Below are positions 3,442-31,625 of a DNA stretch of 64,000 bases, piece by piece. The position numbers and the translations under genes were made by a program. Origin of the DNA: Syntrophales bacterium (GTDB lineage: Bacteria; Desulfobacterota; Syntrophia; Syntrophales; UBA2210); the NCBI GenBank assembly GCA_028718565.1, contig JAQULO010000001.1:27736-91735 (forward strand), in the 5' to 3' direction. The notes beneath the pieces are model-generated. The model saw nothing but the letters and a program-made list of their open reading frames with translations. It ran no database searches and had not been told where the DNA came from. Positions within the stretch are counted from its first letter, which is position 1. The number at the start of each line of letters is the position of its first letter.

Positions 3442-4329
3442 ATGATACGAAGCATGACAGGCTACGGAAGATCGGAATCCGTCTTTGCGGGTAAAAAACT
3501 GGCCGTAGAAATCAAATCCCTCAACCACAAAAACCTGGAAAGCAGCGTGCGGCTCCCTGCCTTTCTCTCCGCCCTAGAGATACATATCAAGAAGAGGGTG
3601 ATGGAGCGAATCTCCCGTGGGAGAGTTGAGGTGAACGTCAGGATAGATTCAGACCCTGGAGCAAATGGTGGAGACAAGCTGGAGGCAAACATCCCCCTCA
3701 TCAGTAGCTATTATGCCCTGCTGAGGGGCCTGAAGGAATCGTTCAATCTCACCGACGAGATAACCCTGAGTACCCTCGTCGGGCTGAAGGGCGGCATCTG
3801 TACGTCGGAAACAGAGATCGACCCTGAGCAAATATGGAGCACGCTGGAAGGGGCTCTGGACGCATCCATTGATTCCCTCGTGCAGATGAAGGAGGCCGAG
3901 GGCAGGCTCCTCTATGAAGATTTCACTGCACGTCTCGGCACGGTTACATCCTGCGTAGAGACGTTAAAGGCGCGGATCCCGGAGGTGACCAACAATTACC
4001 AGGATAGGCTTTCGGCCCGAATCAGGGAACTGCTGGACGGCATGGCTTGCGATGAATCAAGGCTGATTCAGGAAGTTGCTATAATGGCCGAAAAGAGCGA
4101 TATTACCGAGGAGATAGTCCGCCTTGCAAGTCACATAAAGCAGTTTGGCGAGATGCTGCTGAGCAGTGATGATACCATCGGCAGGAAAATGGATTTTCTG
4201 CTACAGGAAATGCACAGAGAAATAAATACGATCGGTTCCAAGAGCAACGACCTTAGCATATCCGGCACCGTAATAGAGATAAAGACGGAACTTGCCAAGC
4301 TGAGGGAGCAGGTCCAAAATATCGAGTAA
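3442..4329 (+). CDS. yicC: YicC family stress-induced protein / endoribonuclease
   Basis: N-terminus MIRSMTGYGR and C-terminal ...LREQVQNIE are hallmarks of YicC. The conserved yicC-gmk-rpoZ gene order supports the call. Confidence 0.85.
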   Translation: MIRSMTGYGRSESVFAGKKLAVEIKSLNHKNLESSVRLPAFLSALEIHIKKRVMERISRGRVEVNVRIDSDPGANGGDKLEANIPLISSYYALLRGLKESFNLTDEITLSTLVGLKGGICTSETEIDPEQIWSTLEGALDASIDSLVQMKEAEGRLLYEDFTARLGTVTSCVETLKARIPEVTNNYQDRLSARIRELLDGMACDESRLIQEVAIMAEKSDITEEIVRLASHIKQFGEMLLSSDDTIGRKMDFLLQEMHREINTIGSKSNDLSISGTVIEIKTELAKLREQVQNIE

Positions 4330-4378
4330 AATACGGTTTTCGGGTTAGAAGAAAGACCGACAAAACAAACACCGTGGA

Positions 4379-5017
4379 GTGGACAACATGAAACATACCG
4401 ATACACAGGGACTCCTCATGGTCATTTCCGCCCCCTCAGGCGCCGGGAAAACCACTCTGTGCAAAAGGCTCTTGGCTGAATTTTCCGATCTGCGTTTCTC
4501 TGTGTCCTGCACCACACGCCCCGCGAGAAAGGGGGAGAAGGACGGCAGGGATTACCACTTTATCTCCGTGGAAGATTTCACGAGGAGACAGGCGAACAGC
4601 GAATTTGTAGAGTGGGAAGAGATCTACGGTCATCTTTACGGAACACTCAAAAGGGATATAGAAGATATAATCACTCGGGGCCATGACGTCATACTGGACG
4701 TCGATACGAGGGGGGCCCGCAATGTAAAGGAACAGTACCCTTGGGGTATTTTCGTCTTCATCATGCCGCCATCCGTGGAAGTCCTTAAGGAAAGATTAAA
4801 AAAACGCGGCTCGGAAACCGACGACATTATAAAGGTTCGCTTCGACAAAGCCATGGAAGAGATACGGGCAAATGAATGGTATGATTATGTTGTATTTAAT
4901 GATATGATGCACGATTCTGTGAATATAATGAGATCCGTGTATATCGCCGAAAAGAACAGGCGATCTCGGCTACAGGGCAGAATAGATTACTTTTATCGCA
5001 TAACCGGAGGTATATAA
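4379..5017 (+). CDS. gmk: Guanylate kinase
   Basis: P-loop ISAPSGAGKTTL and a typical Gmk core (YHFIS..F, EWEEIYGHLYGT). Confidence 0.93.
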   Translation: MDNMKHTDTQGLLMVISAPSGAGKTTLCKRLLAEFSDLRFSVSCTTRPARKGEKDGRDYHFISVEDFTRRQANSEFVEWEEIYGHLYGTLKRDIEDIITRGHDVILDVDTRGARNVKEQYPWGIFVFIMPPSVEVLKERLKKRGSETDDIIKVRFDKAMEEIRANEWYDYVVFNDMMHDSVNIMRSVYIAEKNRRSRLQGRIDYFYRITGGI

Positions 5018-5020
5018 ACC

Positions 5021-5311
5021 ATGGCACGAGTTACCGTAGAGGATTCCCTGGAAAGGGCAAGGAACAGATTTGCCCTGACGCACCTTACGACCCTGAGGGC
5101 AAAGCAACTCCTGAGGAAAGCGAAACCCCTGAGCGAAAAGAAAAACAATCGGGAGATCGTTACCGCTTTGCGGGAAATAGCGGAAGGAAAAGTGATATAT
5201 TCCCACCCCGAAGTTCTCGACGCAAAATCAGCCGATATTGAGCTGGTTGAACTCATAGAAAACAACAGGGGTGTGGTCGAAGATGCAAATGCCGAACCGA
5301 TGCCGAGATAA
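5021..5311 (+). CDS. rpoZ: DNA-directed RNA polymerase subunit omega
   Basis: 96 aa with N-terminus MARVTVEDSLE..NRF.L, typical of RpoZ. It lies directly after gmk. Confidence 0.9.
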   Translation: MARVTVEDSLERARNRFALTHLTTLRAKQLLRKAKPLSEKKNNREIVTALREIAEGKVIYSHPEVLDAKSADIELVELIENNRGVVEDANAEPMPR

Positions 5312-6023
5312 GCTGATATTTGCCCTTGATCTGGGAGAAGACCTGGACGAGGCTGTCAGGTGGACCGACCTGCTGAGGGATCACGTGGGGATGTTCAAGG
5401 TAGGTAAGGAGGCATTCACCCGTTTCGGTCCCCGGATTGTATCGGACATACTGGAAAGGGGCGGAAAGGTCTTTCTTGATCTGAAGTTTCATGACATCCC
5501 GAACACCGTGGCAATGGCCTCCCAGGCGGCTGTAAAACTTGGCATTTCCATGTTCAACTTGCACGCGCTTGGAGGGCGGGAGATGATGGGGCGGGCGGTC
5601 GATTCCGTCAACAAAACCGCGAGCATTCTAAGGATTACCCCTCCGGTGCTCCTTGCGGTAACGGTTCTTACCAGCTTGAATGATTCCGACATCAAAGAGA
5701 TAGGATTTGGATGCACTACCGGGGAGCTCGTTCTAAAACTCGCGATCTCGGCCAGAGACGCGGGGGTTTCCGGCGTTGTGGCATCGGCGCAGGATGTCCT
5801 TCCCATACGGAAGGCGTGTGGAGAAGACTTTATTATTGTAACCCCAGGCATACGACCGGGTAACAAGGTGGCGAGTGACGACCAGAAGCGGGTGTTGACG
5901 CCAAGGGATGCCATCGCCATGGGGGCGGATTATCTAGTGGTGGGCAGGCCCATACGTCTGGCTGATGACCCCGTTGCCACAGCGAACAGCATTACAGAAG
6001 ACATATCCAAGGGGCTCCGCTAA
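5289..6023 (+). CDS. pyrF: Orotidine-5'-phosphate decarboxylase
   Basis: Motifs LIFALDL and FLDLKFHDIPNTV. The ORF opens at 5271 inside rpoZ; the Met at 5289 (MPNRCRDKLIFALD) is the more plausible start. Confidence 0.9.
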   Translation: MPNRCRDKLIFALDLGEDLDEAVRWTDLLRDHVGMFKVGKEAFTRFGPRIVSDILERGGKVFLDLKFHDIPNTVAMASQAAVKLGISMFNLHALGGREMMGRAVDSVNKTASILRITPPVLLAVTVLTSLNDSDIKEIGFGCTTGELVLKLAISARDAGVSGVVASAQDVLPIRKACGEDFIIVTPGIRPGNKVASDDQKRVLTPRDAIAMGADYLVVGRPIRLADDPVATANSITEDISKGLR

Positions 6024-8696: not shown

Positions 8697-11006
8697 ATGG
8701 AAAAACGCTACAATAATGTTCTGGACCTGATAGGGAATACTCCTATTGTAGAGATCCGCCGTCTTAATCCCAATAAAAAAGTTACGGTCTATGCAAAGCT
8801 GGAGGGGGTCAACCCCGGCGGATCGATCAAGGACAGGACAGCGCTATACATGATAGAAAGGGCCGAGGAGAGGGGCGCCCTCACCCCGGAGAAGACCATT
8901 CTGGAAGCCACCAGTGGCAACACCGGCATAGGCCTTGCCCTCGTTGCGGCAGTCAAAGGATATCCCCTTACGCTGACCATGCCTGAATCGGCGAGCGAGG
9001 AGAGAAAGAAGATATTAAAGGCCATGGGTGCCCACATGCGGCTTACACCGGCCGAGTTCGGGACAGATGGTGCGATAGAGGTGGCGTACGAGATGCTGCG
9101 CGAGGAGCCGGAGAAGTACTTCGCCACCGATCAGTTCAATACCGAAGACAACGTAATGGCCCACTACCACGGCACGGCGGAGGAGATCTGGCAGCAGACG
9201 GACCGAAAGGTCACCATGGTGGTAGCAACCCTGGGGACGTCCGGGACCGTCATGGGGATCTCCAGGAGACTTAAGGAATACAACAAAGATATCAGGATAA
9301 TAGGCGTAGAGCCCTATCTCCACCACAAGATTCAGGGGCTAAAGAACATGAAAGAATCCTACCGCCCCGGTATCTTTGAAAAAAAGAGGCTTGACGAAAA
9401 AATCAATATCCTGGATGAAGATGCATTCAAGATGGCCAGGGCACTGGCCCGCACCGAAGGGTTATTCGTCGGCATGAGTTCCGGCGCCGCCATGCACGTG
9501 GCCCTCGAGAAGGCACGGGAAATGGAAGAGGGGGTGATTGTGGTCATCTTTCCCGACAGCGGGGAGAGATATCTCAGCACGTCACTCTTTTCGGACCGTG
9601 AAGAAACCTCACTTCGCCTATACAACACGCTCACCCGGGCCAAGGAATCGTTCAAACCGTTAGGCAACTCTCATGTCTTGATGCATTCATGCGGACCGAC
9701 CATGCACGAGGTCCCTCACATCGGAACCTACCGGCGCTTCGTCGTGGCGGACATGATAGCCCGGTACCTGGAATTCAAGGGATACAGCGTCAAGCATGTC
9801 TCGAACATAATAGACCTGGCCGACCGATCCGTGCGTGGCGCCGAAAGGGTCGGCATGAATATCGGTGAGTTCACCCGGGGGCACACCGAGGCATTCTTCG
9901 GCGACCTTAACAAGCTCAATATCAACCATGATGACACCTATCCGGCGGCGAGTGAGAATGTCGATTCGATGATACAGTTGGCGGAGCGGCTCGTGGAGAA
10001 GGGGTATGCTTACGAAAAACTGAGGTCCGTTTATTTCGACATATCGCGGCTTGACGACTACGGGGTCTTATCAAAGATAGACCTGGCAAACGTGCGACAC
10101 TCACAGACGGTAGACCAGGACAATTACGCAAAGGACAGCCCCGTAGACTTCAACCTCCTCAAGCGCTCAACCCTGACGGAGTTGAAGGAGGGAATCTATT
10201 TCAAGACCAAGTGGGGGAACGTGAGGCCGGGCTGGCACCTTGAATGCGCGGCCCTGTCCATGAAATACCTGGGGGAAACCTTCGATATCTACCTGAGCGG
10301 CGCCGATATTATCTTCCCGCACTGCGAGAACGTCATGGCGATAGGAAAGGCCGCTACGGGGAAGAATATTGCAAACTATTGGCTCGCCTCTGAACTCGTC
10401 ATGCTGGACGGCAAGAAGATGTCACGCTCCCTGAACAACTTCTTTTCCGTGGGCGACCTTGAAGAGCGAGGATACACCGGGCGTGAAATCAGGTTTTTTC
10501 TCCTCAGCTCCCATTACCGAAAACCGCTCAGTTTTTCGTTCGGCGCGCTTGACACCGCCGGCAACACGGTAAAGAGACTCAATAACTTCATCCAGAGACT
10601 GCTACGCCTCACCCCGGGAGATGGCTACGCGGAAACCGACCAACTCATCTACGACGTCAGGAAGGGATTCGCCGAAGCGATGGACGACGACTTCAATATA
10701 TCGGGTGCCCTGGCCTCTCTGTTTGAATTTGTAAGAACGGTAAATATCCCTCTGGCGGCGAGCCGGCTTGATGCCAGGCAGAGAGACCTGGTTCTTGATA
10801 CCATGAATCGTATCAACTCCGTACTGCGCATTATGGATTTCGAGGAGAAAACACTCAGTGAAGATGCCACGCGGCTCATGGAGGAAAGAAGGCAGGCCAG
10901 GTCTGTTGGCAACTGGAAAGAATCCGACCGCCTGCGCCAGGAGCTTGCAACGTTGGGGGTTCTTGTTCATGACACTGAGAAGAATACTACGTGGACCCTG
11001 CAATAA
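8697..11006 (+). CDS. Fusion protein: cysteine synthase (CysK/CysM, PLP-dependent) + cysteinyl-tRNA synthetase-like domain
   Basis: One uninterrupted 769-codon ORF. Residues 1-300 carry GGSIKDR (PLP Lys), TSGNTG, GTSGT and SSGAA. Residues 306-769 are colinear with CysRS (LRLYNTLTR..., SCGPT, HIGT, WHLEC, FPHCEN, KMSRS, DDDFN, C-terminal tail). Confidence 0.9.
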   Translation: MEKRYNNVLDLIGNTPIVEIRRLNPNKKVTVYAKLEGVNPGGSIKDRTALYMIERAEERGALTPEKTILEATSGNTGIGLALVAAVKGYPLTLTMPESASEERKKILKAMGAHMRLTPAEFGTDGAIEVAYEMLREEPEKYFATDQFNTEDNVMAHYHGTAEEIWQQTDRKVTMVVATLGTSGTVMGISRRLKEYNKDIRIIGVEPYLHHKIQGLKNMKESYRPGIFEKKRLDEKINILDEDAFKMARALARTEGLFVGMSSGAAMHVALEKAREMEEGVIVVIFPDSGERYLSTSLFSDREETSLRLYNTLTRAKESFKPLGNSHVLMHSCGPTMHEVPHIGTYRRFVVADMIARYLEFKGYSVKHVSNIIDLADRSVRGAERVGMNIGEFTRGHTEAFFGDLNKLNINHDDTYPAASENVDSMIQLAERLVEKGYAYEKLRSVYFDISRLDDYGVLSKIDLANVRHSQTVDQDNYAKDSPVDFNLLKRSTLTELKEGIYFKTKWGNVRPGWHLECAALSMKYLGETFDIYLSGADIIFPHCENVMAIGKAATGKNIANYWLASELVMLDGKKMSRSLNNFFSVGDLEERGYTGREIRFFLLSSHYRKPLSFSFGALDTAGNTVKRLNNFIQRLLRLTPGDGYAETDQLIYDVRKGFAEAMDDDFNISGALASLFEFVRTVNIPLAASRLDARQRDLVLDTMNRINSVLRIMDFEEKTLSEDATRLMEERRQARSVGNWKESDRLRQELATLGVLVHDTEKNTTWTLQ

Positions 11007-14003: not shown

Positions 14004-17000
14004 TTACACCTCCTTCCTTTCGACATTTACCATGAAGGCCTTGCTCTCCGGAATCATGGTATTGGCGTCTCCGATAAACGGAGTTACTATGTTGGCGGAA
14101 TCACCAAAGGTAAAGACTTCCGGCTTCTTATCACCATGCACGTATTCCCTCATCTTTGTGGTAATCCAGCCGTAGTGCCATGGAATACCGACCTCATGAA
14201 CCGTATTGCCGTCGATATTGAAGGGTTTCCATCTGTCTGTCACGATCGCCACGGCATCGACCTGTCCCCTGACTGATTTCACGGTTACTATCTCGCCGTT
14301 TTTGATCCCCTTATTCTTGGCAAGCTCAATGCCCATCTCCACGAACATGGAGGGCTGCATCTCCGCGAGCCAGGGACACCACCTCGTCATAAGGCCGGTC
14401 TGCCAGTGCTCGCTCACCCGATACGTTGAACAGACGATCGGGAACCGCGGATCGCAGGTTGCCCTCGCATCCACATCCGTCCCCGTTCCCTCTTTATCCC
14501 ATCTCTTGATTGTAGGATTGACGAACTGCGGTGACATGAGGTTGCTCTCAACGGGGCATTCCAGGGGTTCATAGTGCTCCGGGAAGGGACCGTCCACCAG
14601 CCCGGGACCAAAGATCGAACCGACTCCATCGGGCTTCATAATAAAGGGGGGCCTTCCAGCGCCCGGTGCGGCGACGCCATCCGGCACATCGCCGACCCAC
14701 GAGGAACCATTCCACACAATAACGGGATGCTCTTTGTCCCAGGGCCTCCCTGTCTCCGGATCAACGGAGGCGCCGTTGTAGATGATTCTCCGGTTAACCG
14801 GCCAGCTCCACGACCATTCGGGATACAGACCAATGCCGGATTCATCTTTTTTGCTCCGGCGGGCCGCCATATTTCCCTTCTCGGTATAGGAATTACAGTA
14901 GAGCCAGTTGCCCGAAGAGGTAGACCCGTCACCCTGGAGAAAGGCGAAACTGGGAACCAAAGTACCCTTCTTGTACAGCGTGCCGTTGATCTCCTTATCT
15001 TCAAGGAAGTAGCCGTTGATCTCCTTGGCGATATAATGGGCATCCAGGTGCCGGACCTTGCCGTCAATATCCTTGGGTCCATAATCCCAAGTCATCTGTG
15101 TGATGGCCTCTTTCAGCGGGCCGCCTTCCTCTTCGTACAGCTCCTTGATTCTGTAGAAGAGCTCCGAGATTATCTCACCGTCAGGCATGGCCTCCCCGGG
15201 AGAATCGACCGCCTTGTACCGCCACTGCATCCAGCGACTGCTGTTGGTGATACTGCCCTCCTTTTCAATTGAAGCGGAGCAGGGAAGCATGAAGACCTCC
15301 GTCTTTATCTTCTTCGGATCCATATCCGGCCCCTTCCAGAAGGAGCCAGTCTCGTTGTCGAAGATATTGACATTCACCATCCAGTCCAGCTTGCCCATGG
15401 CCTGCCGGGTCTTGTTGGAACTGGCACCGCTGCACGCGGGGTTCTGCCCCCACGCGAAGAAGCCGGTGAAATTTTCTTTGTACATCGCGTCGAAGAGGCT
15501 TAGCCACGAGTAGTTCTTCCCGTCATCCAGCTTTGGCAAGTATGTATAGGAATCTTCCAGAGAAACACCCGTTCCGTAGTGGGCCCTCAGAAGGCTTGCC
15601 ACATACTTGGGGTAGTTATTCCACCAGTTCAGGCTGTTGGGTTCAACGGTTGTGGGGGTATTCTTGGCGTCATACTCGGCCAGGGTCGGCAGGGACGCCA
15701 CAGGGGTTTTCAGGTACCCAGGCAGGATATGGAAAAGGAGACATTGGTCGGTGGAGCCCTGTACGTTGGACTCGCCCCTGAGGGCATTGACCCCGCCGCC
15801 GGCCACACCCATATTCCCCAAGAGGAGCTGAATGATAGACATCGTTCTGATATTCTGAACGCCGACTGTATGCTGGGTCCATCCCATGGCATACATGATC
15901 GTCCCCGCTTTTCCTGTAGCACCGGTCTTTGCATACTCCTCATAAACCTCAAGGAGTTTCTCCTTCGGCGTACCGGCAATCCTGGAGACGATATCCAGAT
16001 TGTATCGGGAATAATGTCTCTTCAAGAGTTGATACACGCAGTTGGGATCCTTGAGGCTCATATCCTTCTTGGCGACACCGGCCGAATCGGTCTGGAAGGA
16101 CCACGAGGACTTATCGTACTTGGCGTCCTTGAGACCGGAGAATACGCCATCATTATCTCCGGGGAGTTTGAAGTCGGCATTGACCAGGAACGGGGCGTTG
16201 GTATAGTACTTGACATATTTTTCCTGGATCAGGTTGTTCTCCAGAATATAGTTGATCATACCGCCCAGGAAGGCTATGTCGCTTCCCGATCTCAGGGAGG
16301 CATAGATGTCAGCTTTAGAAGAGGTCTGCGTGAATCGGGGATCCACGCTGATCAGCTTCGCGCCGTTTTCCTTGGCCTTGGTTACATACTTGAATGAGAT
16401 AGGGTGATTGGAAGCCGCGTTACTTCCCATGATTAACACACAATCACTGTACTGGATATCGATCCAGTGATTGGTCATTGCACCGCGTCCGAACGACTCT
16501 GCCAGAGCCGCAACAGTGGCGGAGTGTCAGATACGGGCCTGATGTTCAATATAGACCAGGCCCAACCCCCTCAAGAATTTTTGATAAATGAAGCACTCTT
16601 CGTTGTCCATGGCGGCGCTGCCGACGGAAGCTATACCCTCCGTCCTGTTCACCACCTGGCCCTTTTCGTTCTTAAGGGTAAAACTTGCGTCTCTGCTTTT
16701 CTTGACGTTCTTGGCGATCTTATCGATCATCCACTCCCAGGATTTCTCTTCCCACTTGTCGGAGTAAGGCGCCCGGTAGAGCGGTTTGTCAAGACGATTT
16801 TTGTTGACCGAAAGCTGATAGATGGATCCGCCCTTACTACAGAGTGATCCTTGGTTCACAGGATGATCCGGATCCCCCTCTGTGTTGATAACCTTCCCGT
16901 CTCGAGCGGATACGATTATTCCGCACCCAACGGCACAGTAAGGGCAGACCGTGGTGGTCTCTTTTGCATACTTGATCTTTAACGGCTGCGCGTGAGCTGC

Positions 17001-17084
17001 CACCGGCTTCAGATTGATACCGATCCCGCTCGCCATCAGCGCAGTTCCAGAAATCTTCAAGAAGCCTCTTCTGCTGATATCCAT
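14004..17084 (-). CDS. fdnG: Formate dehydrogenase alpha subunit, selenocysteine-containing, Tat-exported
   Basis: ORFs 16527-17123 and 14004-16478 share a frame and are joined by TGA at 16529-16527, reading ...IEHQARI-U-HSATVAALAESFGRGAMTNHW, the FdnG Sec context. Twin-arginine signal MDISRRGFLK and CPYCAVGCG are present. AAGGAG lies 8 nt upstream of ATG 17084. Confidence 0.93.
16494..16510 (-). promoter_or_regulatory. Candidate bacterial SECIS hairpin for fdnG
   Basis: The mRNA reads CGGCUCU-GGC-AGAGUCG, a 7-bp stem (one G-U pair) with a GGC apical loop. The stem begins 16 nt after the UGA and the loop lies about 24 nt after it. Confidence 0.5.
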
Positions 17085-17633
17085 AACATGCACTCCTTTC
17101 TGAAAGTTTTGATACCCAAGCACTCACTTCTTCTCTCCTTTCCAAGCACGGGAGGCACAGCCGTTTCCAGCCATACCCATTGTCCGCTCTTCATGGAAAA
17201 TTCTTCGTTAGAAGAGACGGATTCGGAGCACATTATCTCTACATCATCTTCAATTATCCCCTTGGGTTACTAATGAATTGGAAACCAATTGAAAGCTACA
17301 ATAAAGAGCTGAATCAACGGTCGGGCTATATAGACTATGAGGTGTTTTGTCAAGATCTTTTAGAAATTTCAGCAGTGATTTCTATATATTATGCCATAAT
17401 TGACATAAGCTTTGGCAAGTTCACCCGCCCTCCGATAGTAGGGCCGGAGAGTCGCCACAAAACACAAATTTCACTTTTGAATATCCGGAATATCTAGAAC
17501 AGCTATCCTGTTGACATGTTGTCGCCGTATGTGCTCCTATGTGCTCTATAGAAAGAGCTTTATAACCCTAATTTCACAGGGTCAACGGGATTTTAATTTT
17601 TTTGATGGCGGCTGAGTGGGATGCCTTTTTTTC

Positions 17634-27654: not shown

Positions 27655-28003
27655 GGAAACATCAGGGTGTCTGAGCCCGAGTTTCCTGGAATGTTGATTC
27701 TTCAGTCTACCATTTTTTTGATAAGGCTAAAGGGGGAGAGATTTTGGTTGTACGGGAGATTACGGAGGCTATGGATAGACGATGAGATCGCAAAGGAGCA
27801 TTGGCATCTGCCTATAATCTCCTCCATCGACACGGGTGGCTCAAACTGCGCCCGGAACAAACGACATCCCCGCGTTCCGGTCAGGACGCGAATCACCCTC
27901 TAGCTCCCTCCGGCGAATCCGACCTCTTGATAAAATCCGTTTTCATACCCCCGTGATATCGCGGGGGCACTAACTTGTACAAGAATTGTTTTGTGACAAC
28001 CCC

Positions 28004-29338
28004 TTACAATTGTTTCTTCAAAACATGGGCCGCCGTATGAATGATATCCCAGGACCCGCCGAAGGGAGGGCTATAGGCAAGGTCCAAGTAGCCAAGCTCA
28101 TCAAGCCCCATCCCGGACCAAAGACATGCCGACAGGGTGTTTATGCGGCCTACCGCTCCGCTCTGCCCCACTGCCTGCGCGCCCAGCAGTTTTCCTGATG
28201 CCTTGTCCGCAATCAGTTTGAGACCTAATCGGTGCCCTTCCCCCATAGAGGCCGCTGCCGACCTGCCCCAGATTATGGTACCTGCGGGGGCATATCCACT
28301 CCGCTGTGCCTCACGCTCGTCAAGACCTGTCATAGCAACCTCCAGGCCAAAGACCTTGAAGGATTGCGCCCCTACAACTCCAAGGAACGTCAGGGGATAT
28401 CCCCCGATATTCCGCCCGGCAACCCTCCCCTGCTTGTTCGCTATATCCCCCAGCGGGATGTGTACCCATCTCTTGCTCACCCGGTGATATGATTCACAAC
28501 AATCACCAGCGGAGAAGATCTCCTCACGTGAGGTGCGTTGCGAGGAATCCACTCGGATGGCACCCGATTCACCTACGGCAAGACCTGCCTCACGCGCCAA
28601 GTTCGTCTCGGGCTTCACGCCGAGGGCAAAGATGATGATGTCCGTATCTATCTTCTCTTTGTCGGTCACGAGGGACAAACGCGTTTGTGCTCCCCTTTCA
28701 ACGGCAACAGGAGACTGGTGGGCCATAAAGGTTACACCATTGTTGGTCAGTTCCTCCAGAACCACCGTAGAAAAAGCCGGATCCCATTTTTTGACCGGAA
28801 GTTCACCCCGGTATACGATACGAGTATCCAGACCGCGGGACTTCAAGGCCTCTCCCATCTCCATGGCGATAAAACCGGCCCCGACTATCGTGGCCTTACT
28901 GCACTGGTTGCTCTTGATGTATTCCTTGATGTTCAGGCCGTCGCGCAGGTTCTTAAGGACAAAAACCCCGTCCAGGTCCGTGCCCGGTATGTTGGGCAGG
29001 GTTGGTACAGCACCCGTTGCCAGGACGAGGACGTCGTATGGTATCCGTTCGCCCCCCGCCAGAAGGACGATCCCCTCATCGACCCCAATTCCCTCAACCC
29101 GGGTATTGAGTTTTACCTGTATCCCTGTTTCTTCAAACTTTTCAGGGGTCCTTGCTATAAGCTTTTTAGAATCCTTTATTACATCACCGATGTAATAGGG
29201 CATGGGTCAGGCAGCATATGAGACAAATTCCCCCCCCTCCAGCATGGTTACATCCAGAGATGGATCTCGCCTCTTTGCCTCCGCGGCGGCGGATGCCCCC
29301 CCTGCACCCCCTCCAACGATCACAAGCTTTCTGTTCAT
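28004..29338 (-). CDS. Selenocysteine-containing pyridine nucleotide-disulfide oxidoreductase (CoA-disulfide reductase / NADH oxidase family)
   Basis: Called ORF 28004-29203 starts at MPYYIGD and lacks the FAD-binding N-terminus. The same frame continues upstream through TGA (29209-29207) to ATG 29338, giving MNRKLVIVGGGAGGASAAAEAKRRDPSLDVTMLEGGEFVSYAA-U-PMPYYIGDVI. This supplies the GxGxxG motif and places U where the family has its redox Cys (SFANCGLPYY). ATG overlaps the lgt stop (ATGA). A SECIS-like hairpin follows the TGA. Confidence 0.85.
29177..29197 (-). promoter_or_regulatory. Candidate bacterial SECIS hairpin for the Sec-oxidoreductase
   Basis: The mRNA reads UAUUACAUC-GGU-GAUGUAAUA, a perfect 9-bp stem with a GGU apical loop. 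The stem starts 9 nt after the UGA and the loop is about 18-21 nt after it. Confidence 0.65.
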
Positions 29339-30186
29339 GTGTCCCCCCTTTGTCTTTTTTTAATCCCCATTACGATTATGCCGAGAACGATCATGCCAAC
29401 GCAGAGCATCTGTCCCATGCTGAGTTCCCATGCAAAAAGTCCGACCTGGGGATCGGGTTGTCTGAAAAATTCAATAAAAAACCGTACCGTTCCATATCCA
29501 ATAAGATATAAAGAAAAGAAGTTTCCGGTTAAATACTCCTTTTTTCTGACACTCCACAGGATCACGAACAAGAAGATCCCTTCAAAAAAGGCCTCATACA
29601 ACTGGGACGGGTGACGGAGGGTATGGAGCAGGTCCAGCGGGAAATACATCCCCCACCACACATCCGTAACGCGACCGTACAGTTCACCATTCAGAAAATT
29701 CCCGATTCTCCCAAAGGTATATCCCATGGGTATTGCCGGACAGAAGAGGTCCGCAAAGCGCCAAAAACTGATATTACGCCTGCGGAAAAAAAAGATGGAG
29801 ACCAGGAGAATCCCTACAAGCCCGCCATGGTAAGACAGGCCGCTGATTCCGACAAACCGGAACCCGTCTGAGATGTCAAAGGGTAAAACAATGGATAGTG
29901 GGTGAGCCGCGTAGTATTCAAGATTATAGAAGAGGACATATCCCAGCCGCCCACCTATCAGTAGGGCCCCTATCGCCCATACAAAATAGTCCTGGATCGT
30001 CTCCTTCGAGTACTCGAACTTTTCATTCTGTATCCTATGGATAACGAGGAGATATACAACGGAAAAGGCAACAAGATACATGAGCCCGTAGTACCGAAGC
30101 TGAAAGGAACCTATTTCCAGAAACGCCGGGTTGATATGCTCCGGGATATGTTGCCAGAAATCTATCAGTCGGGCCATCGCACGCAT
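29335..30186 (-). CDS. lgt: Prolipoprotein diacylglyceryl transferase
   Basis: 283 aa, polytopic, with motifs YGLMYLVAF, GGRLGYVLFY and FGRIGNFLNGELYG. Confidence 0.92.
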   Translation of the reverse strand: MRAMARLIDFWQHIPEHINPAFLEIGSFQLRYYGLMYLVAFSVVYLLVIHRIQNEKFEYSKETIQDYFVWAIGALLIGGRLGYVLFYNLEYYAAHPLSIVLPFDISDGFRFVGISGLSYHGGLVGILLVSIFFFRRRNISFWRFADLFCPAIPMGYTFGRIGNFLNGELYGRVTDVWWGMYFPLDLLHTLRHPSQLYEAFFEGIFLFVILWSVRKKEYLTGNFFSLYLIGYGTVRFFIEFFRQPDPQVGLFAWELSMGQMLCVGMIVLGIIVMGIKKRQRGDT

Positions 30187-30257: not shown

Positions 30258-30455
30258 TCAAGTGGACGAGCAGGAAGGCCCGGATGACGAACAGCTCTGG
30301 CAGGACCCATGAGACCCAGCAGGTCGGGAGATGATCTTCTCAACCTTTTTCTTTCCGCATGCGGGACACGATATTTCCTTGTCGTCATCCTGCGAAAACC
30401 GGATCAGTTCAAATTCCTCACCGCAGTGTATGCATCTATATTCATAGATAGGCAT
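30258..30455 (-). CDS. FmdB-family zinc-ribbon protein (CxxC_CxxC_SSSS type)
   Basis: MPIYEYRCIHCG...CPACG followed by a Ser/Cys-rich tail. Confidence 0.8.
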   Translation of the reverse strand: MPIYEYRCIHCGEEFELIRFSQDDDKEISCPACGKKKVEKIISRPAGSHGSCQSCSSSGPSCSST

Positions 30456-30659: not shown

Positions 30660-31625
30660 CTAATATGCTTGACCTCTGACACCATCGACATAGAGCGAGG
30701 CGCTGTGCGCGGCTGTCGCTCCATCGCCGCAGGCGGTTACCACCTGCCGGAGAGACTTGCTGATGCAGTCCCCGCAGGCGAAGATGCCTTCAGCCGATGT
30801 CTTCATATCACGATCGGCTGCAATATAGCCATCCGCGTCGATATCGACAACCTCTTTGACAATATCAGTGTTGGGAATAAGACCGACAAAGATAAACACC
30901 CCCTCGACAGGGATCTCCTCCGTCCGGCCAGGATCTTTAACATTTCGTATCCTCACACCGGTTACGCCATCCTCTCCTAGGATTTCCTCCACGGTGGAAT
31001 CCCAGGCGAAGGTGATCTTCTCATTGGCAACAGCCCGCTGCTGCAGCACAGCTGTCGCGCGCAGGCGGTCTCTCCGGTGAATCAGAGTGACCTTCGAGGC
31101 GAATTTCGTAAGATAGATGGCTTCCTGGACGGCGGTATCTCCGCCTCCGACCACCGCGACTTCCCTGTTCCGGTAAAAGGGAGCATCGCAGGTGGCACAG
31201 TACGATATGCCCCTGCCCACCATTTCCTCCTCCCGCGGTACTCCCAGGCGGCTCCAGGCGGCCCCCGTGGAGACAATGACGGAAAGGGTCCTGTAAGCGC
31301 CTCTGTCGGTGACGACCTCCCACCCTTCAACATCTCCCAATTGCACCCGGTGTATCCGGCTCACCTGCTCAGGCTTGATCTCCAGGCCGAACGAAACAGC
31401 CTGTTTTTTGAAGGTTTCGTTAATCTCAAACCCGCCGATCGCGGGGATTCCGGGATAGTTTTCTATCATATCCGTCATGGTGATCTGGCTGGCCTGGGCG
31501 TTCCCCTCCAGCAGCAGTGTCTTCATATCGGCCCTGGACGCGTAGAGCCCCGCGGTCAGCCCTCCGGGGCCACCCCCCACTATAACAATATCATAGGTAT
31601 CCTTTGGTATCTGTATGTCTGCCAC
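30660..31625 (-). CDS. trxB: Thioredoxin-disulfide reductase
   Basis: FAD motif IVGGGPGG, redox centre CATCD and NADPH motif VVGGGDTA. Confidence 0.93.
   Translation of the reverse strand: MADIQIPKDTYDIVIVGGGPGGLTAGLYASRADMKTLLLEGNAQASQITMTDMIENYPGIPAIGGFEINETFKKQAVSFGLEIKPEQVSRIHRVQLGDVEGWEVVTDRGAYRTLSVIVSTGAAWSRLGVPREEEMVGRGISYCATCDAPFYRNREVAVVGGGDTAVQEAIYLTKFASKVTLIHRRDRLRATAVLQQRAVANEKITFAWDSTVEEILGEDGVTGVRIRNVKDPGRTEEIPVEGVFIFVGLIPNTDIVKEVVDIDADGYIAADRDMKTSAEGIFACGDCISKSLRQVVTACGDGATAAHSASLYVDGVRGQAY

Follow-up and report, generated by a model that had tools for sequence, protein, structure and literature searches.

Flavoproteins of the coenzyme A (CoA)-disulfide reductase (CoADR), NADH oxidase (Nox) and NADH peroxidase (Npx) group that use a catalytic cysteine follow an established cycle, in which electrons pass from NAD(P)H to flavin adenine dinucleotide (FAD) and from there to the oxidised catalytic residue. 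The NADH peroxidase of Enterococcus faecalis is the archetype of flavoprotein catalysis through a cysteine sulfenic acid. Mammalian thioredoxin reductase is a pyridine nucleotide-disulfide oxidoreductase that contains selenocysteine (Sec, U); it carries this residue in a C-terminal GCUG motif, which receives electrons from a flavin-proximal CxxxxC disulfide. This study concerns a gene on the minus strand of a 64,000-nucleotide stretch of a Syntrophales bacterium genome (assembly GCA_028718565.1, contig JAQULO010000001.1, positions 27,736 to 91,735; hereafter the window). A preliminary description, made from the sequence alone, had proposed that an in-frame TGA in this gene stands at the position of the lone catalytic Cys of CoADR/Nox enzymes. 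We find that the gene very probably encodes one 444-residue FAD/NAD(P)H oxidoreductase of the homodimer type, belonging to the CoADR/Nox/Npx group, whose flavin-proximal redox residue is Sec44.

Selenoproteins of this kind have been predicted before. A Sec-containing "NADH oxidase" family was listed in a 2006 survey in Geobacter metallireducens only (PMC1794560), and the same survey lists no such selenoprotein for Syntrophus aciditrophicus. A Sec NADH oxidase was also described in the Olavius delta-1 symbiont (PMC1976440), and the family was found in the Global Ocean Sampling data as PRK09564 (PMC2398784). More recently, it was listed with the Sec motif UGxP and with TIGR03385 (PMC13188914), while a 2022 inventory places it under "Predicted (71)", i.e. 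not experimentally verified (PMC9312934, Table 1); the latter entry bears out the statement, in the preliminary description, that surveys had already predicted Sec-containing NADH oxidase homologs. The representative is G. metallireducens WP_011365774.1, from Kryukov & Gladyshev 2004 as tabulated in PMC1794560, PMC9312934 and PMC13188914. Our full-text literature searches found no biochemical study of the Sec CoADR/Nox-type family, and nothing in them contradicts the earlier statement that no biochemically characterised member is known.

Results

Reading frame and orthologs

Translated on the minus strand from ATG 29338, the frame comprises 43 codons (MNRKLVIVGGGAGGASAAAEAKRRDPSLDVTMLEGGEFVSYAA), a TGA at 29209-29207, a further 400 codons (PMPYYIGD...) and the stop codon TAA at 28006-28004. 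The full-length coding sequence of the predicted Sec-containing flavoprotein (28004-29338, minus strand) amounts to 444 codons plus TAA, an extent supported by the frame and by Pfam and PDB matches. Its single internal stop is the TGA at codon 44, and it is otherwise intact, without frameshifts. The sole piece of this gene in the mechanical list of open reading frames (ORFs) was a 399-residue ORF (28004-29203, minus strand) that starts at MPYYIGD. The start codon of the full-length sequence (29338-29336) shares an ATGA overlap with the stop codon of lgt (TGA, 29337-29335), and a Shine-Dalgarno-like AAGGGGGGA (29342-29350, minus strand), read directly from the sequence, ends 3 nt before ATG 29338. 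On re-reading, all the sequence statements of the preliminary description proved correct, including the frame, the position of the TGA, the called 399-residue ORF, the ATGA overlap and the upstream AAGGGGGGA. It was also right that the called ORF lacks the FAD-binding N-terminus: the GxGxxG Rossmann motif, VGGGAGG at residues 8-14 of the 444-residue product, is present only when translation starts at ATG 29338.

A genome scan yielded 80 orthologous loci in Syntrophales, Syntrophaceae and Smithella genomes (labelled L001 etc.). The Sec forms considered below are the 70 loci with TGA plus the window (n = 71), and the family is made up of all 80 loci plus the window (n = 81). Read at the DNA level, codon 44 is TGA in 70 of the 80 orthologous loci and TGC or TGT in the remaining ten; the split into TGA and Cys forms that had been suggested as a check was thus found, and at the same codon. 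A homologous start (M or V) followed by 43 upstream codons in the same frame is present in all 80 orthologs. The amino-acid entropy is 0 at G9, G14, S16, A18, A19, E20 and R23, with third positions at about 0.95-1.9 bits (0.95 being the value of the twofold codon of Glu20), and this protein-level constraint on codons 1-43 indicates that the upstream stretch is translated. Codon 46, the called start, encodes Met in 52 of the 71 Sec forms and Thr, Leu, Ile or Val in the other 19, which rules out a conserved internal start. The conservation of the 43 codons and the variability of Met46 both contradict the possibility, raised at the outset, that the orthologs truly start at the methionine of MPYYIG. 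The closest relative is L001, from a Syntrophales metagenome-assembled genome (MAG), with 86% amino-acid identity. The motif after Sec is U-P-x-P in 70/71 Sec forms (U-P-M-P in the window) and U-L-V-P in L002.

In a protein search, all of the matches listed with more than 70% identity were N-terminally truncated calls of 398-400 residues or shorter. Fifteen more truncated calls (399-405 residues, 62-65% identity) were interleaved with full-length forms of 438-479 residues (54-70% identity). NCBI entries among the truncated homologues are named "FAD-dependent oxidoreductase". The truncated calls start just behind the TGA, and this loss of the N-terminus recurs as a systematic error in the annotation of Syntrophales MAGs.

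Protein family and catalytic site

For protein searches of the 444-residue product, U was written as C. Pfam assigned residues 4-285 to Pyr_redox_2 (PF07992, E 1.9e-54), residues 148-224 to the NAD(P)H-binding Pyr_redox (PF00070, 70.8 bits, cut-off 22) and residues 326-427 to the dimerisation domain Pyr_redox_dim (PF02852, 42.7 bits, cut-off 25.3). The best solved relative is the NADH oxidase of Thermus thermophilus (6ruz), which aligns end to end (query 1-437 with 1-439, E 2.2e-90). Further end-to-end matches were obtained with Pyrococcus CoADR (5l1n, 4fx9 and 3kd9, E about 1e-79) and with persulfide-reductase-type enzymes of Shewanella, and the E. faecalis NADH peroxidase (1joa, 1npx) matched with E about 1e-58. 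As judged from its sequence, the product is a complete FAD/NAD(P)H flavoprotein of the CoADR / NADH oxidase / NADH peroxidase structural group.

Codon 44 falls in the catalytic-Cys column in all the alignments printed, namely those with 6ruz (VSYGA-C-GLPY), 4fx9 and 3kd9 (VSHAP-C-GIPY) and 5l1n, and residue 44 is Sec or Cys in 81/81 family members. It lies in the segment S-x-x-x-C-x-x-P-Y, which in this enzyme group holds the one flavin-proximal redox-active Cys (Cys42/43/44). The structural alignments and the 70 TGA and 10 TGC/TGT orthologs together identify codon 44 (29207-29209, minus strand) as a UGA predicted to be read as Sec in place of the flavin-proximal catalytic Cys; the alignment check placed U on the very residue that the preliminary description had named. 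Read by eye, the N-terminal GGAGGAS and the ANKQG segment are CoADR-like rather than of the Npx type with His10/Arg303. Because of this resemblance, a CoA-linked (per)sulfide/disulfide reductase is the favoured predicted activity, although we would put its chances no higher than even; an NADH oxidase/peroxidase activity is less favoured but still a serious candidate.

A Cys280-Cys281 pair lies directly after the FAD-binding GD motif (GDCCESYH; 28496-28501, minus strand). Cys280 is invariant in 81/81 family members and Cys281 is present in 69/81, in Sec and Cys forms alike, whereas the solved CoADR/Nox homologs have Val-Ala in place of the pair. Cys280 could be a resolving thiol, or merely a residue of the flavin pocket. 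The earlier designation of the protein as a single-Cys flavoprotein holds insofar as there is one flavin-proximal redox residue, but it overlooks the second, invariant Cys280. The sequence GDC also occurs in the window's own trxB.

The hairpin downstream of the UGA codon

The candidate SECIS (selenocysteine insertion sequence) lies within the coding sequence, at codons 48-54 (YYIGDVI; 29177-29197, minus strand). It is a perfect 9-bp inverted repeat, TATTACATC-GGT-GATGTAATA (29197-29177), which begins 9 nt past the TGA; 29197-29189 pair with 29185-29177 around a GGU loop at 29188-29186. The conserved core is formed by the inner 8 bp (29196-29189 with 29185-29178); the outer U-A pair is restricted to the window and a minority of relatives. 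The window contains six distinct perfect hairpins of at least 9 bp, compared with about 1.5 in shuffled sequences, and the flavoprotein hairpin alone has a 3-nt loop. Folding of 40 nt gave -8.8 kcal/mol. The model for bacterial SECIS elements (bSECIS; PMC13188914) specifies a loop of 3-9 nt with G in its first two positions, an upper stem of 4-16 bp, a distance of 16-37 nt from the UGA and a minimum free energy (MFE) of -7.5 kcal/mol or lower. The window hairpin falls within this model on every count: its loop is GGU, its stem measures 8-9 bp, it lies 18 nt from the UGA and its energy is -8.8 kcal/mol.

Comparison of the orthologs revealed a constraint that is specific to the Sec forms. Among the 71 Sec forms, third-position entropy is 0 at codons 48, 50, 52 and 53 and 0.11 bits at codon 49, all in the stem, while the third position of Gly51, which is the last nucleotide of the loop, is free at 1.37 bits. 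Val53 is encoded by GTA in 71/71, although only 13% of the Val codons in the rest of these genes are GTA. Of the 71, 67 carry exactly TATTACATC..GATGTA, against about 1% expected from gene-wide codon usage, and the four exceptions keep the pairing, three through A-U to G-U changes and L076 through a compensatory change from C-G to U-A. All eight pairs are present in 71/71 Sec forms versus 1/10 Cys forms (Fisher p 3.8e-11, ignoring phylogenetic non-independence), so that the hairpin is indeed conserved in the TGA forms, another point that had been put forward as a check. The Cys forms retain the PYYIGDV peptide exactly in four of ten cases and with one or two residues different in the rest, but nine of the ten have lost between one and three pairs. 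In L013, L032 and L050, pairs were lost through synonymous changes (GAC, GTC, TAT). The predicted SECIS is embedded in the active-site-adjacent PYYIGDV motif and is under Sec-specific constraint. Of the perfect 9-bp hairpin with a GGU loop at SECIS distance that had first been noticed, the presence and the compatibility with the bSECIS model are upheld; conservation extends to 8 bp only, and the folding energy is unremarkable against shuffled sequences.

The Cys ortholog with an intact 8-bp hairpin (TATTACATCGGTGATGTAAT) is L034 (TGC form, 4001-5314). Its hairpin looks like a remnant SECIS left after a recent Sec-to-Cys conversion, a phenomenon that has been described (PMC1794560). A lower stem extension, CCC...GG, in the fold of the window sequence was considered as a part of the SECIS and rejected, as codons 47 and 55-56 vary. 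An Rfam scan of the whole window at gathering thresholds detected no SECIS family, its only hits being RNase P RNA, two tRNAs and the riboswitch for the molybdenum/tungsten cofactor (Moco/Tuco) mentioned below. At loci with CCG as codon 45, such as L020, L025, L043, L046, L049 and L052, RNAfold prefers an alternative helix, (G)ACCGAUG/CAUCGGU, within 26 nt of sequence counted from the TGA. The UGA is sequestered in this helix, which also stands in competition with the SECIS 5' arm; it may be incidental. The window has CCC at this codon, and there the alternative helix is weaker.

Selenocysteine decoding in this genome

The window contains a second Sec-UGA, in fdnG (17123-14004, with the coding sequence at about 17084-14004, minus strand). 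The preliminary description had pointed to a Sec codon in fdnG as a sign that the genome decodes Sec, and an in-frame TGA was confirmed here at 16529-16527, within HQARI-U-HSATV. In the hairpin downstream of this codon, a GGC triloop closes an apical stem of 8 bp, which starts 27 nt from the U of the UGA; this apical design of an 8-bp stem and a GGN triloop is the same as in the flavoprotein hairpin. Since fdnG has a canonical Sec-UGA and SECIS, Sec machinery is implied elsewhere in the genome. TGA also serves as an ordinary stop codon in 12 of the 44 Pfam-supported genes of the window.

The fdnG locus (14004-17240, minus strand) is preceded by a Moco/Tuco riboswitch (RF01055, 17119-17240, 65 bits) and followed by fdnH-like, cytochrome b and fdhE genes. 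A neighbouring gene of the AIRS family was considered as selD, but was found to be hypE (TIGR02124, 456 bits; selD 43 bits against a cut-off of 125).

Gene neighbourhood, paralogs and evolution

The flavoprotein gene is the last of a minus-strand run that begins with trxB (thioredoxin-disulfide reductase, 30660-31625; TIGR01292, 363.4 bits against a cut-off of 343.45). This is followed by a gene for a 65-residue zinc ribbon of the FmdB type with a CxxC...CxxC motif, in its Cys form (30258-30455; PF09723 Zn_ribbon_8, 61.6 bits), and by lgt (prolipoprotein diacylglyceryl transferase, 29335-30186; PF01790, E 3.5e-69, 233 bits), which lies directly upstream with a 4-nt overlap. These three matches agree with the gene order that had been read from the sequence. 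Among the 80 loci, lgt is found in the upstream flank on the same strand in 57, both Sec and Cys forms, in several of them with a gap of hundreds of bases to about 1.5 kb. A trxB match was obtained at 50/80 loci, in Sec and Cys forms (49 upstream; one weak, downstream), and 19 related loci showed the zinc-ribbon gene. Located 36 nt past the flavoprotein stop is a GC-rich hairpin, CCCCCG-(8 nt)-CGGGGG (27948-27967, minus strand), with no U-tract behind it. It was not detected in the terminator scan; the transcript of the trxB-lgt-flavoprotein run may end here.

A second, paralogous clade does not have the trxB-lgt neighbourhood. It comprises L052 and L065 as well as L046-L049, L051, L054-L059, L063-L064, L072 and L077, and all of its members but one are Sec forms. 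In L052 and L065, where the genes flanking 4001-5332 were checked, the paralog lies between the genes for a C_GCAxxG_C_C redox protein and for an HpaB / AbfD-like (4-hydroxybutyryl-CoA-dehydratase-like) enzyme, and a PAS-LuxR regulator is encoded upstream. The C_GCAxxG_C_C "putative redox-active protein" figures among the listed selenoprotein families in its own right. One MAG (L019 and L046) contains both paralogs, and the two genes have TGA. In a neighbour-joining tree, Cys forms appear in at least seven separate places within Sec clades; from this scatter, Sec looks ancestral in the family, with repeated reversion to Cys. The presence of Cys forms in Syntrophus-labelled MAGs (L032, L050) agrees with the 2006 survey, in which no such selenoprotein was found in S. 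aciditrophicus.

Elsewhere in the window, a 769-residue ORF (8697-11006, plus strand) has an N-terminal PALP domain (PF00291, E 1e-73) fused to a complete cysteinyl-tRNA synthetase (tRNA-synt_1e, DALR_2, CysS_C). PALP is a cysteine-synthase-type enzyme dependent on pyridoxal phosphate; it is unusual for Cys synthesis and the charging of Cys-tRNA to be joined in one protein.

Discussion

Several observations weigh against the assignment of this locus as a Sec-containing CoADR-type flavoprotein. Selenium insertion at UGA-44 is a prediction, and selA, selB, selC and selD were not found in the 64-kb window, either by Pfam scans or by ARAGORN, which returned only tRNA-Pro and tRNA-Met; it is from fdnG that we infer the Sec machinery of this genome. 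With regard to the hairpin, its fold energy is unremarkable against shuffled sequences (z -0.45 for 73 nt and -1.85 for 40 nt), some orthologous hairpins reach only -5.7 kcal/mol, which is weaker than the threshold of -7.5, and classical covariation is thin, as six of the eight pairs never vary in a nearly invariant stem. As the z-scores of the single sequence are not significant, the significance of the hairpin rests on its position and on the comparative data. Finally, the best NCBIfam matches are the CoADR equivalogs TIGR03385, NF007123 and NF010037, but all three scores lie below the cut-offs (390.9 vs 578.8, 384 vs 458 and 222.9 vs 394). Given these scores under the curated cut-offs, CoA disulfide is not established as the substrate and the protein cannot be classified among the CoADR equivalogs.

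Were the TGA a true stop, the product would be the 399-residue protein starting at Met46, and the upstream 43 codons would be a short ORF or non-coding. Such a protein would possess neither the GxGxxG beta-alpha-beta FAD fold nor the catalytic residue. The 43 codons are kept in frame and register in 80/80 orthologs under a constraint that acts on the amino acids and not on synonymous positions, 19/71 Sec forms have Thr, Leu, Ile or Val in place of Met46, leaving no conserved restart, and the Cys-form orthologs continue through the codon 44 column. We therefore consider termination at codon 44 highly unlikely, even though truncated calls (398-405 residues or shorter) prevail throughout public data, covering all the listed homologues above 70% identity and 15 more at 62-65%, and even though TGA is an ordinary stop elsewhere in the window. 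There is a negligible probability that the TGA stems from faulty sequencing or assembly, or that a recent mutation of a Cys codon has made the gene a pseudogene. The ten orthologs with TGC or TGT are only one base away from TGA, but an identical TGA codon in 70 independently assembled genomes from different studies effectively refutes this explanation; the remaining ORF has no stops or frameshifts, and the conserved hairpin downstream is specific to the TGA forms.

A subtler alternative is that UGA-44 is read as a standard residue (Cys, Trp or another, through near-cognate suppression), with a hairpin that stimulates read-through or is kept for some other reason. In other systems, read-through can be stimulated by a hairpin that follows the stop codon, and this explanation gains from the fact that selenium at codon 44 is a prediction and that no sel gene was found in the window. 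However, alternation between UGA and Cys at a redox-active site is the standard signature of a selenoprotein, and loss of the TGA leads to Cys only, after which the hairpin decays. The hairpin agrees with the bSECIS model, also in its spacing and in a loop that opens with GG, and its stem and triloop design is common to the SECIS of fdnG, a family whose Sec is experimentally established; decoding as a standard residue thus appears very improbable. It is extremely unlikely that codons 48-54 are frozen by conservation of the amino acids, by codon bias or by a signal at the DNA level instead of by an RNA structure that serves Sec insertion. Such an origin would be compatible with the conservation of YYIGDVI as a protein motif beside the active site, with the minimal covariation and with a single-sequence fold whose stability does not significantly exceed that of shuffled sequences. 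On the other hand, the Cys forms largely keep the peptide (4/10 with exact PYYIGDV) and lose the pairing, with synonymous breaks in L013, L032 and L050. Moreover, a minority Val codon (GTA, 13%) is used in 71/71 Sec forms, the sole free third position is the one in the loop, and pairing is preserved in all four variants among the Sec forms.

If the gene encodes a Sec-containing flavoprotein, as we favour, the hairpin 13-33 nt after the UGA would act as a bacterial SECIS during translation and would recruit SelB.GTP.Sec-tRNA(Sec), such that UGA-44 would be read as Sec and not as a stop. By homology with the Cys enzymes, NAD(P)H would then reduce FAD, and FADH2 would return an oxidised Sec44 adduct to the selenolate. 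This adduct could be Se-S-R, where the partner is CoA, CoA persulfide or polysulfide, or Se-OH, formed after reaction with H2O2 or O2; both the substrate and the chemistry of the selenium intermediates are proposed by analogy. It is improbable, in our estimation, that Sec44 forms a selenenylsulfide with Cys280 (Sec44-Se-S-Cys280), which would define a mechanistically distinct two-centre Se/S subclass of the single-Cys flavoproteins in Syntrophales in which Sec is ancestral and dominant (70/80, two Sec paralogs and at least seven Cys reversions). The position of the gene at the end of the conserved trxB - zinc ribbon - lgt - flavoprotein run is consistent with a function in the thiol or oxidant homeostasis of a strict anaerobe of the Syntrophales.

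The locus is a mis-annotated member of an already predicted selenoprotein family, which has been in inventories since 2004, and it reveals no new principle. What these data add is that Sec is predominant in Syntrophales (70/80), that there are two Sec paralogs and that the SECIS lies within the PYYIGDV motif. Through the mis-calling, a conserved redox enzyme is annotated in Syntrophales genomes without its FAD fold and its catalytic residue. Close relatives also provide natural Sec/Cys pairs, e.g. L013 (Cys) and the window clade (Sec), at about 70% identity, with which the contribution of selenium could be measured in a redox centre that consists of a single flavin-proximal residue and works by Se-OH or Se-S-CoA chemistry.

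Comparison with known systems

The nearest described system is the predicted Sec family of Geobacter, which is compared here by its published motif and domain listing. It shares with the window protein the domain families COG0446, PRK09564 and TIGR03385, as seen in the NCBIfam matches of the latter and in the Joint Genome Institute (JGI) names of its homologs. Its lineage, too, is deltaproteobacterial and anaerobic, and it has the status of a prediction. The published motif is U-G-x-P, whereas the window has U-P-M-P; the column is the same C-G-x-P-Y column and the second residue differs. The window protein and its relatives form a Syntrophales clade that is not named in those selenoproteome surveys.

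With regard to the Cys enzymes, Thermus Nox and Pyrococcus horikoshii CoADR (6ruz, 4fx9, 3kd9 and 5l1n) have the three-domain layout and the catalytic column in common with the window protein. They contain Cys where the window has Sec, and Val-Ala where the window family has Cys280 and usually Cys281. The E. faecalis NADH peroxidase has the same fold and a single flavin-proximal redox residue, but the match to it is weaker than that to the CoADR-type enzymes, and its SSHGG motif, which includes His10, differs by eye from the CoADR-like GGAGGAS of the window protein. By analogy with this peroxidase, a cycle between Sec-SeOH and selenolate is conceivable.

The window hairpin has the small loop starting with GG, the stem, the spacing and the MFE in common with the bacterial SECIS consensus, from which it departs in its minimal GGN triloop with a free third base. 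It does not have a conserved bulged U of the E. coli fdhF type. Mammalian thioredoxin reductase also uses Sec, but in the window protein the predicted Sec would itself be the flavin-proximal centre. The eukaryotic enzyme relies on a SECIS in the 3' untranslated region, whereas the hairpin of the window gene lies in the coding region.

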